Shown here in pieces: positions 9,001 through 12,000 of a stretch of DNA of 12,736 nt. The DNA is taken from the IMG/VR virus record IMGVR_UViG_2675903606_000010; one strand, 5' to 3'. This stretch comes from a virus. Taxonomy: Duplodnaviria; Heunggongvirae; Uroviricota; Caudoviricetes. A program made the position numbers. Numbering within the stretch: position 1 is the first letter of the stretch; the number at the start of each line of letters is the position of its first letter.

Positions 9001-12000
9001 ATCGATCGTGCGCTGGCAATTGGCGTACTGGCGTAAGTGGAGAACGAGCATGAACCTTGAAGCCTTACCAAAATATTACTCCCCAAAATCTCCAAAATTG
9101 AGCGATGACGCACCGGCGACAGGCTCAGGTGGTTTAACGATTACGGATGTGATGGCTGCGCAGGGGATGGTGCAGTCGAAAGCACCGCTTGGGTTTGCCT
9201 TATTCCTGGCAAAAGTTGGTGTTCAGGATCCTCAATTTGCGATTGAAGGTCTGCTCAATTACGCGATGGCACTGGATAACCCGACATTGAACAAATTGAG
9301 TGAAGAAACCCGGTTACAGATCATCCCTTACCTTGTGAATTTTGCCTTTGCTGATTATTCCAGGTCTGCGGCAAGTAAGGCTCGCTGTGAGCATTGTGCT
9401 GGTACTGGATTTCATAATGTATTGCGCGAAGTGGTGAAACACTCCAGAAGCGGGGAATCTGTTATCAAGGAAGAGTGGGTGAAGGAACTATGTCAGCATT
9501 GCCATGGTAAGGGAGAAGTCAGCACAGCGTGCAGAGGGTGTAAGGGTAAAGGTATTGTCCTGGATGAAAAAAGAACCCGGCTTCATGGTGTGCCTGTTTA
9601 TAAGATTTGTGGGCGTTGCAATGGCAACCGGTTTAGCCGTTTACCAACCACACTGGCGCGGCATCATGTCCAGAAACTGGTACCGGACCTGACGGATTAT
9701 CAGTGGTACAAAGGATATGCAGACGTTATTAATAAACTGGTTACAAAGTGCTGGCAGGAAGAAGCGTATGCTGAATCGCAATTGAGAAAAGTGACAAGAT
9801 AGATAATTTTCGCCGAAGATGTCGACGTGATACTTGCATTTTTCAAAAAATATGGATAAGATTTTCTCAACGATGGGCCTTGTATGTCTACCGTTGGTAA
9901 ATGTCAAAAACCCGCCGCTGAGCGGGTTTTTTTGTGCCTGATGTCTCATGAAACTATGAAATGGATTGGTGCGTTAAACATTTTTTCTTATTATCTTTTA
10001 GATTTTGGAGAGATGGTTAACGTCTGTATTCCAGAAACTCGATGATTATTTAATAAATTAGTTTCAATGATGCTTCTAGGTTATGACTGTAATGAAAAAG
10101 GTATTAATAGCAGCGATAGGTTTTTGTTTGGTTGGTTGTGCAGGTATGAAATTACCTGAGTATTCGCAAGTTAAAGCAAGTCCGTATTATACAGATTGCC
10201 GTGCGTTTGCCATGGATGTTTATAAAAATGATGGATACAGCAAAATTGCGAAAACTACTATCCTTAGCATGGATGATGTGAAGGCTAGATATATTGTGAC
10301 AGGGTGTGTAGTTGCTATGGGGAAAAACACTGTAGAGGAAATCAAAGCTGATCTCTCTGCTAAAGGGAGTTCTTTTGGGCTTATCAGTGGAGCTTGTTCT
10401 AGTGCGGCATGTCGGGTTGATGTAGAGCAGCAAATGAACGCTTATGTACTTGGTAGTTATTATGCTGCAAATAAAAAATTCCCGGATAAAATGAAAGCAG
10501 AGTTTTAAGCAAACCTTGTTTTCGATTATATGTCGAAGATAAATGTTAGTAACGGCATAATAAGTAAATATATAGCTGTGATAGCAACCCGCCACTGAGC
10601 GGTTTTTTTGTACCTGTAAACTTGGTGCAGTACAGTAAACACGCTGGTGGCCGTGAATACTGACTTTTTATCTTGCTGGCTTTTTAGACAAGAGTTATTG
10701 GTATGTCATGTTAACCAGAAGGGAAAAAGACATGCTAAAACAGCAAGATATGACAGAAACCGCCGCCGCAGTCCTTCATTTCTTACCTGCTGACAAGTGG
10801 GTAACGCCACGCATGATGACGAGAACTACCGGAGTAAGCGAAGCCCGGTGCCAGTTAATACTGACTCAGTTAGTTCTGGCGGGTCTGGCGAAGGATAACG
10901 GCGGGTACGGGAATAAATTCAGACGCTGCCAGTAATGGCGGTTTCCTGCTGTGAAAATGGGCGGCTGGTGGGTGTTGGTAGCACCTGCCAGCCATTCGCT
11001 CATGCTTACTGGTCACAAGCGAACCACGGCCCACTGCTTTAGCGCAAAAGCAGAGTGAGCCTACCAGAGTTACGCTTACTGATCCATGAAAAATACTGTA
11101 AAAATAAACAGTGTTTATTTAATCAACGCTGATTGCCTGCATTTTATTCAGTCCCTGCCTGATGATTCCATTGACCTGATTGTTACCGATCCGCCGTACT
11201 TCAAGGTGAAACCCAACGGCTGGGACAATCAGTGGAAAGGGGACGAAGATTACCTTAAGTGGCTGGACCACTGTCTGGCCCAGTTCTGGCGGGTGTTAAA
11301 ACTTGCCGGAAGCCTTTACCTGTTCTGTGGGCATCGCCTGGCATCTGATATTGAGATCATGATGCGTGAACGTTTCAACGTGCTTAACCATATCATCTGG
11401 GCGAAGCCGTCCGGACGTTGGAATGGGTGTAATAAAGAAAGTCTGCGTGCATATTTTCCAGCCACAGAGCGTGTTCTGTTTGCTGAACATTACCAGGGGC
11501 CATATCGCGGCAAAAGTGACGGCTATGCGGCAAAAGAAAGGGAACTCAAACAGCACATAATGGCACCGCTGATTTCGTATTTCAGGGATGCTCGTGCCGA
11601 ACTGGGTATAACGGCAAAACAAATTGCCGAAGCCACAGGTAAGAAAAATATGGTTTCCCACTGGTTTGGTGCCAGTCAGTGGCAGTTGCCGAATGAGGCT
11701 GACTATCGGAAGTTACAGGCACTGTTTTCCCGTATAGCGGCAGAGAAGTTTCAGGAACAACAACTGGAACAACCACACCACCAGCTGGTGGCATCTTATG
11801 ATTCACTGAATCGCAAATATTCTGAATTGCTGGATGAGTTTAAATCTCTCCGGCGCTATTTCTCCGTATCAGTCTCCGTGCCTTATACCGATGTCTGGAT
11901 GCATAAACCCGTTCAGTTCTACCCGGGTAAACATCCGTGTGAGAAACCTGCGGATATGCTCCGGCAAATAATCAATGCCAGTAGTCGACCTGGTGATCTG

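Follow-up and report, generated by a model that had tools for sequence, protein, structure and literature searches.

The analysis described here concerns a 677-bp segment, carrying one lipoprotein gene, of a viral DNA of 12,736 nucleotides (IMG/VR record IMGVR_UViG_2675903606_000010; the whole of this stretch is referred to below as the window). We consider it likely that the segment is a single-gene mobile cargo cassette, that is, a moron, placed at the classical insertion site of a lambdoid prophage of the SfV/mEp460 type, directly past the Q-dependent pR' and the tR' that follows it, with an envelope-protective role as a guess at its function. The window is part of an Escherichia coli lambdoid prophage of the SfV/mEp460/Ayreon type, and its gene order is the same as in the annotations of SfV, Ayreon and a Stx2k phage. 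The variable unit (9934..10609, plus strand), composed of a leader, the lipoprotein gene, a 3′ spacer and the second of two terminator copies, corresponds to the 677-bp period of the repeat formed by these copies and is missing from the relatives in which the site is empty. A preliminary description of the region, whose coordinates and quoted sequences are correct, had regarded the segment as variable cargo and not as a conserved core component, a view that the distribution of the unit bears out.

When a genome was counted as filled if at least 80% of window positions 9800-10700 were present, 215 of 5,426 complete E. coli genomes were found to carry the insert. A query built from an empty site returned 461 E. 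coli records with both flanks within reach of each other, which leaves, after subtraction of the 215 filled ones, about 245 records having the same flanks without the insert; the 677-bp unit is thus variable cargo, and roughly half of the sites that are otherwise the same contain it. Among phages, the site is filled in mEp460, Ayreon, fifteen Stx2c phages and one Stx2k phage, and it is empty in SfV, as it is in the related locus L007. Comparison with these insert-less relatives, as had been proposed for defining the junctions, identified the terminator as the joint in both SfV and L007. The empty site of L007 contains one terminator, in which the left flank of copy 1 (AGATTTAAGAA) is joined to the right flank of copy 2 (GTACCTGTAAACTT); such a hybrid single terminator is what recombination at tR' predicts, in agreement with the earlier suggestion that the cargo was inserted there by recombination or brought its own copy. 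Because the empty sites retain a single hybrid copy, it is homologous recombination at the terminator that has inserted the unit or is able to delete it. In the E. coli survey, furthermore, matches restricted to the left side extend to the end of the hairpin, those restricted to the right side have their start at the first base of the hairpin or slightly ahead of it, and three filled loci (L005, L045 and L048) pass into another downstream module directly behind copy 2. Since both the one-sided matches and the module switches break at the hairpin, it represents the crossover point of module exchange.

Two related arrangements were observed in the course of this comparison. Another E. coli prophage (L008 4256-7399, equivalent to L004 1-2346) has the same terminator and downstream backbone with a different cargo: upstream of the terminator are a different Q of 114 aa and a reverse-oriented gene of the metallophosphoesterase family encoding 1,047 aa, a much larger cargo that is possibly a defence gene. 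The lipoprotein unit precedes tRNA genes in some relatives and, in the Stx2k phage, stx2 as well (L005 3349-3419; L003 6001-7584), so that the lipoprotein and Shiga toxin can share one Q-dependent leader.

The placement of the unit relative to the late promoter follows from the sequence preceding it. The antitermination protein Q (9050..9802, plus strand) contains a DnaJ-like zinc-finger region (PF03589 Antiterm, E 7e-54; PF00684), and its reading of 250 aa agrees with the annotated Q of SfV and Ayreon. Directly after it is a pR'-like late promoter (9834..9877, plus strand), consisting of TTGCAT at 9834-9839, a 17-nt spacer, TAAGAT at 9857-9862 and the 12-mer CTCAACGATGGG at 9866-9877; it aligns with lambda pR', with which it has the −10 region and the 12-mer in common, and it scored below threshold in a sigma-70 consensus scan. 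Transcription would start at about 9870; for this position, and for a pausing function of AACGAT, we assume correspondence with lambda. The first hairpin is reached about 40-65 nt after this putative start and, because it follows so soon after a lambda-like pR' start, is regarded as the equivalent of tR'. The region thus contains the components of a lambda-type Q-dependent late leader, i.e., a promoter directly after Q, a lambda-like start region and an intrinsic terminator, at which antitermination is predicted. As in the pR'-6S RNA-tR' leader of lambda, a strong intrinsic terminator, which Q has to overcome, comes after the homologous promoter and start region; unlike in lambda, Q is of the PF03589 zinc-finger type, and the leader RNA, at about 65 nt, would be shorter than that of lambda, which is 194 nt long.

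Copy 1 (9906..9933, plus strand) is a tR'-like terminator reading AAAAACCCGC-CGCTGA-GCGGGTTTTT plus TT, which folds on the plus strand with −17 kcal/mol (z −3.2) and carries a terminator annotation in SfV and Ayreon; being symmetric (A5 / T7), it is also terminator-like in the other direction, with a minus-strand fold of −15.8 kcal/mol (z −2.95). Copy 2 (10586..10609, plus strand; AACCCGCCACTGAGCGG-TTTTTTT) starts 78 nt past the lipoprotein stop codon. The two copies form a direct repeat (9909-9932 / 10586-10609) of 24 nt with 92% identity at a spacing of 677 bp, and, in 200 shuffled versions of the window, every sequence differed from the 32 nt of copy 1 at more than 3 positions. Of the earlier statement that two nearly identical terminators flank the segment, the repeat therefore stands, whereas the second copy is weakened in the window: a G-to-T change, giving GCGGT7 instead of GCGGGT6, leaves a stem of only 4 bp, whose fold (−5.7 to −7.8 kcal/mol, z 0) is no better than those of shuffled sequences. 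Copy 2 is intact in Ayreon (−13.3 kcal/mol) and in nearly all relatives; among the listed related loci, the GCGGT7 form is found only in the window and L037, and L004, with its different cargo, has it at its single terminator. A consensus terminator scan missed both copies, which we ascribe to A/T pairs being counted into the stem, as our reading of the rules of the tool rather than a result that it reports.

The hairpin recurs well beyond this unit. The exact 22-mer CCCGCCRCTGAGCGGGTTTTTT is present in at least 120 viral contigs (L071-L190), in which it is accompanied by at least 56 left flanks and at least 63 right flanks, and wherever two copies reside in one contig they are 677 bp apart and correspond to the lipoprotein unit. 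A mobile nature of the hairpin itself was considered and rejected; it is widespread in many contexts, yet its loop makes up about 9% of 120 sampled hairpins of the form CCCGC-N6-GCGGG-T6. In our reading it is rather a stock terminator that is popular and offers a short stretch of homology. Among the contigs containing CCCGCCRCTGAGCGGGTTTTTT, the bases directly behind the T-run often resemble one another (xTGCCTG...), a likeness that may stem from common ancestry as well as from convergence towards an optimal terminator.

As to the direction of the exchange, the sequences fit an insertion as well as a deletion between the repeats. Accordingly possible, if somewhat doubtful in our estimation, is a reversed order of events, in which the filled state is ancestral, the empty sites have arisen by deletion between the 30-bp direct repeats, and copy 2 is no target duplication but a common terminator belonging to the cassette. 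The hybrid single terminator is equally compatible with deletion, the hairpin is a stock terminator found in many contexts, and the 3′ terminator of a Salmonella homologue of the unit (described below), with a related stem and flank and another loop, suggests that a cassette-borne terminator is ancestral. On the other hand, the foreign composition of the unit and its mobility among unrelated contexts show that it was acquired at some point, and at the SfV junction about 11 nt of the right flank of copy 1 are retained ahead of the copy-2 flank, slightly favouring a site that had been unoccupied; neither argument is decisive.

The foreign composition became evident on direct calculation. The insert without its terminators (9941-10582) has a GC content of 35.7%, versus 49.2% for the whole window, and the segment is therefore strongly atypical of the element, as its designation as AT-rich had implied; it is the lowest in GC of all 642-bp segments in the 12.7 kb, the minimum falling exactly at 9941. 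GC at the third codon position is 29.5% in the lipoprotein open reading frame (ORF), versus 47-56% in the neighbouring genes.

The lipoproteins form a small, mobile family that is restricted to Enterobacterales. In a Salmonella prophage, a gene 77% identical to that of the window and a leader homologous to its leader are located, together with the same terminator, behind a different Q (PF06530/DUF1133) and ahead of different lysis genes, with a 3′ terminator that is related but distinct; as this unit stands behind a different Q, terminator, leader and gene have moved together between Q modules. Elsewhere the gene is found in other positions: in the early region of Rac-like Salmonella prophages, where it is oriented divergently to a vapBC pair (65-67% identity to the window protein), between the Rz and terminase genes on the opposite strand in phage L067 (67%), among the replication genes of phage-plasmids of about 111-115 kb from Buttiauxella and Klebsiella pneumoniae (55-63%), and as a singleton of low GC on Serratia chromosomes, in three neighbourhoods that differ from one another (56-70%), where similarity is confined to the gene and about 110 nt upstream. 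In the window, the leader (9941..10091, plus strand) is AT-rich (29.8% GC); its gene-proximal 110-130 nt travel with the gene in these unrelated contexts (phage, phage-plasmid and Serratia), and it is for this reason presumed to contain a promoter of its own.

Two further features of this region may be mentioned. A 34-codon ORF (9941-10045, plus strand; MSHETMKWIG...) is an annotated gene in Ayreon and phiSTEC1575-Stx2k and matches phrog_37626; it was rejected as probably not a gene, since the corresponding leader in Salmonella does not conserve the frame. Of the sigma-70-like sites in the region, the best is antisense within the lipoprotein coding sequence (10213-10186, minus strand), with ATGGCA, a 16-nt spacer and TATAAT, and 10 of 12 matches; it is conceivable that an antisense RNA of about 250 nt covers the start of the gene and ends at the bidirectional copy 1 (9938-9906, minus strand). 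Promoter-like sites are not enriched over shuffled sequences.

The lipoprotein gene (10092..10508, plus strand) encodes 138 aa, or 141 aa when read from an ATG at 10083. The product starts with MKKVLIAAIGFCLVG, followed after the cleavage point by CAG..., and has a signal peptide and the lipobox LVG/C, the Cys codon of which is at 10137-10139; the mature protein comprises 123 aa with Ala at +2, which predicts sorting to the outer membrane. The lipobox fits the pattern [LVI][ASTVI][GAS]C, its Gly-Cys is invariant in nine aligned sequences, and acylation is predicted. In addition to the lipobox, Cys36, Cys72, Cys102 and Cys107 are invariant among homologues, each of the nine lineages compared has a mature protein of 123 aa, and dN/dS values against the homologues are 0.06-0.16, with synonymous sites saturated. 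The translation and these constraints establish a genuine, strongly constrained lipoprotein gene, and uphold the earlier recognition of a single gene with signal peptide and lipobox. An AF2 model shows five helices (pLDDT 83). Homology and structure searches were uninformative, consistent with the gene having been described as one of unknown function. It matches phrog_4748 over the full length (E 2e-89), and is thus a member of a family that has no assigned function and adds no mechanism; the PHROG matches are limited to families of this kind. No family beyond noise was found in Pfam at E ≤10, no match in NCBIfam or PADLOC, no informative neighbour of the AF2 model in the structure searches, and a sequence profile search of the PDB gave only noise matches to uL14m. 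An exhaustive hidden Markov model (HMM) search of 1.84 billion representative proteins returned solely its own family, with eight representatives, and the indexed search gave eleven clusters at 90% identity, although individual family sequences occur on at least 1,000 contigs.

In the mechanism that we propose, the mature 123-aa protein would, after sorting by the Lol system (Ala at +2), sit in the outer membrane, anchored to its inner leaflet, as a helical bundle with two disulfides facing the periplasm. After induction, RNA polymerase modified by Q would read through the lipoprotein gene and yield large amounts of the protein, as may be expected because the gene is on the strand of the late operon and behind intrinsic terminators only; Q-modified polymerase ignores such terminators, so that the gene would share the transcript of the late operon irrespective of the condition of copy 2. 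In lysogens, a weak or regulated promoter within the leader would allow expression. Such a promoter, and with it lysogen expression, is probable from comparison of the homologues, since the gene, accompanied by its leader of about 110-130 nt, is also found pointing away from vapBC, running antiparallel to the phage operons that flank it, and standing alone on Serratia chromosomes.

Several observations weigh against this interpretation. The sigma-70 consensus scan of the plus strand of the leader (9941-10091) found no promoter, and in a hand search for sigma-70 and sigma-E sites the candidate hexamers were poorly conserved, with nothing consistent across lineages. Copy 2 may be the cassette's own terminator and not a duplication. 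No homology or fold similarity points to any particular function. Finally, the solo copy in the window could be only part of a system, given that the homologue is paired with a second gene in three other contexts: a lipoprotein gene of 99 aa follows it after 10 nt in L067 (5428-5727), L009 (6446-6745) and L301 (2501-2800). The carriers of this second gene, which is not present in the window, are one phage and the Buttiauxella and Klebsiella phage-plasmids; its product has the lipobox LSAC or LSGC, two compared copies are 77% identical, and no Pfam match was obtained for it. The two proteins may form a two-lipoprotein system.

In an alternative, unlikely in our view, the gene is purely late, has no promoter of its own, is expressed through Q only, and serves a lytic role, either masking receptors on debris, as T5 Llp does, or modulating lysis. 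It would account for the conserved placement on the same strand as the first gene behind pR'/tR' in both E. coli and Salmonella phages despite their different Q and lysis genes, for the leader being devoid of a consensus promoter, and for copy 1 being a strong terminator, from which little read-through would be expected in lysogens. It does not account for the homologues located where no late promoter can act, namely those divergent from vapBC, antiparallel between Rz and terminase, in the replication region of phage-plasmids and as Serratia singletons, nor is there a constant partner among the lysis genes. An Rz1-type o-spanin is not indicated, the gene being 1.7 kb upstream of the holin with two backbone genes between, and the relatives having Rz genes after the endolysin.

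With regard to function, we suggest only tentatively, and by analogy, that the cassette-borne protein binds an envelope component and thereby shields the lysogen or the lysing cell from an incoming phage, through a block of receptor or injection, or from some other envelope-directed attack. Superinfection exclusion and serum resistance had also been named as candidate functions in the preliminary description. Bor/Iss of lambda, Cor of phi80 and N15, Llp of T5 and TraT of F are, as is predicted for the window protein, small outer-membrane lipoproteins that constitute accessory cargo, and it is plausible that the window protein acts as these exclusion and conversion lipoproteins do, by binding to an envelope component. 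No homology to Bor, Cor, Llp or TraT was detected with Pfam, the annotated PHROGs, NCBIfam and PADLOC, however, and, in contrast to these proteins, the predicted disulfide-bonded five-helix bundle is without informative structural neighbours. The bor and cor genes are located near the tail or in lysis-distal regions, and the genome position of the window gene also differs from theirs. Rather improbably, the protein might instead be an orphan immunity or protective factor directed not against phages but against a toxin acting in the periplasm, such as a bacteriocin, a type VI secretion system effector or a lysozyme-like enzyme; a small lipoprotein predicted to face the periplasm and to contain disulfides, its patchy spread as a singleton in elements of Serratia, Salmonella, E. 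coli and Klebsiella, and its occupation of host-beneficial accessory positions, among them one next to a toxin-antitoxin pair, would be in accord with this. That the gene is merely a chance open frame in an AT-rich spacer with coincidental hairpins, as the lack of a family annotation and the several phage records leaving the region unannotated might suggest, is refuted by the low dN/dS, the constant mature length and the invariant lipobox and four Cys residues, together with the confident AF2 model and the failure of the shuffles to produce a comparable repeat.

A broader possibility, which we regard as improbable at present, is that the lipoprotein, solo or together with the 99-aa partner, founds a new phage-borne family of envelope effectors, acting for example in superinfection exclusion or defence from the inner face of the outer membrane, having a fold unlike any solved structure, and passed as a minimal cassette from one Q module to other, unrelated ones by means of the shared stock terminator hairpin as a portable recombination joint.

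As a cassette, the unit is worth comparing with the morons of other lambdoid phages, a concept that reportedly goes back to Juhala et al. in 2000. Like these, it is present or absent between collinear relatives, differs in composition, is followed by an intrinsic terminator, and is situated behind pR'/tR' on the late strand. Unlike typical lambdoid morons, it has a copy of one and the same terminator at either end, and these copies are the recombination joints. The strict definition of a moron includes a promoter of its own; the leader in the window lacks a sigma-70 consensus site on the plus strand, whereas homologues with the conserved leader are found in divergent or antiparallel orientation. 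Lambdoid prophages tolerate insertions at the pR'-proximal site, stx2 included, and convergent pairs of anti-sRNAs (small RNAs; AgvB/AsxR-like) have been reported at this moron site in prophages of enterohaemorrhagic E. coli (Tree et al., PMC4104026). Our Rfam search for such AgvB/AsxR-like convergent anti-sRNAs gave only sub-threshold, terminator-shaped matches.

The backbone around the insert is shared with its relatives. Upstream of Q, Pfam assigns a KilA-N protein (7182-8039) and a DUF968 protein (8041-9036). Downstream of the insert, and outside it, is a 75-aa ORF of the SfV orf47 type (10708-10935, plus strand; phrog_331), which in SfV and L007 comes directly after the single terminator; it is followed by a DNA methyltransferase of 350 aa (11086-12138, plus strand; PF01555, E 2e-39; PADLOC MTase_II), also found in empty-site relatives, by a terminator from 12145, and by a P21-type holin as the first lysis gene (12205-12420, plus strand; PF04971, E 2e-35). 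The segment had been placed between Q and the lysis genes, which is correct on the side of Q but does not hold as direct adjacency to the lysis genes, since the 75-aa ORF and the DNA methyltransferase intervene.

Farther upstream, positions 1400-1434 (plus strand) match exactly the 5′ part of sRNA-17, an ArcA-modulated small RNA of an mEp460-like prophage of E. coli K1 RS218 (PMC7719688). The stretch of sRNA-17 covered by the Northern probe of that study is missing from the window, the version in which is therefore truncated or 'degenerate'; a location of sRNA-17 in the 'intergenic' region of the insert was rejected, as its 5′ part maps to these upstream positions. Two Rfam matches are above the gathering score, isrK (3837-3913, plus strand; 60 bits) and the C4 antisense RNA (3938-4025, plus strand; 80 bits), suggesting a P1/P7-type antisense-controlled module in the window prophage.

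The cassette is an ordinary and clearly delimited case of a phenomenon already known. Its clean filled and empty pairs show modules being exchanged with the crossover at a short terminator hairpin; neither this nor a possible role of the gene in lysogenic conversion is unexpected for the field. The gene is common, being carried by the 215 complete E. coli genomes, by Stx2c- and Stx2k-converting phages, by many Salmonella prophages and by Klebsiella phage-plasmids, and, although widespread and under strong purifying selection, it is completely uncharacterised. Because it occupies the Shiga-toxin site of lambdoid phages, strong expression on induction is to be expected, as for stx. If the protein turns out to be a lipoprotein of exclusion, defence or virulence modulation, it would add a widespread function to those known from lysogenic conversion.

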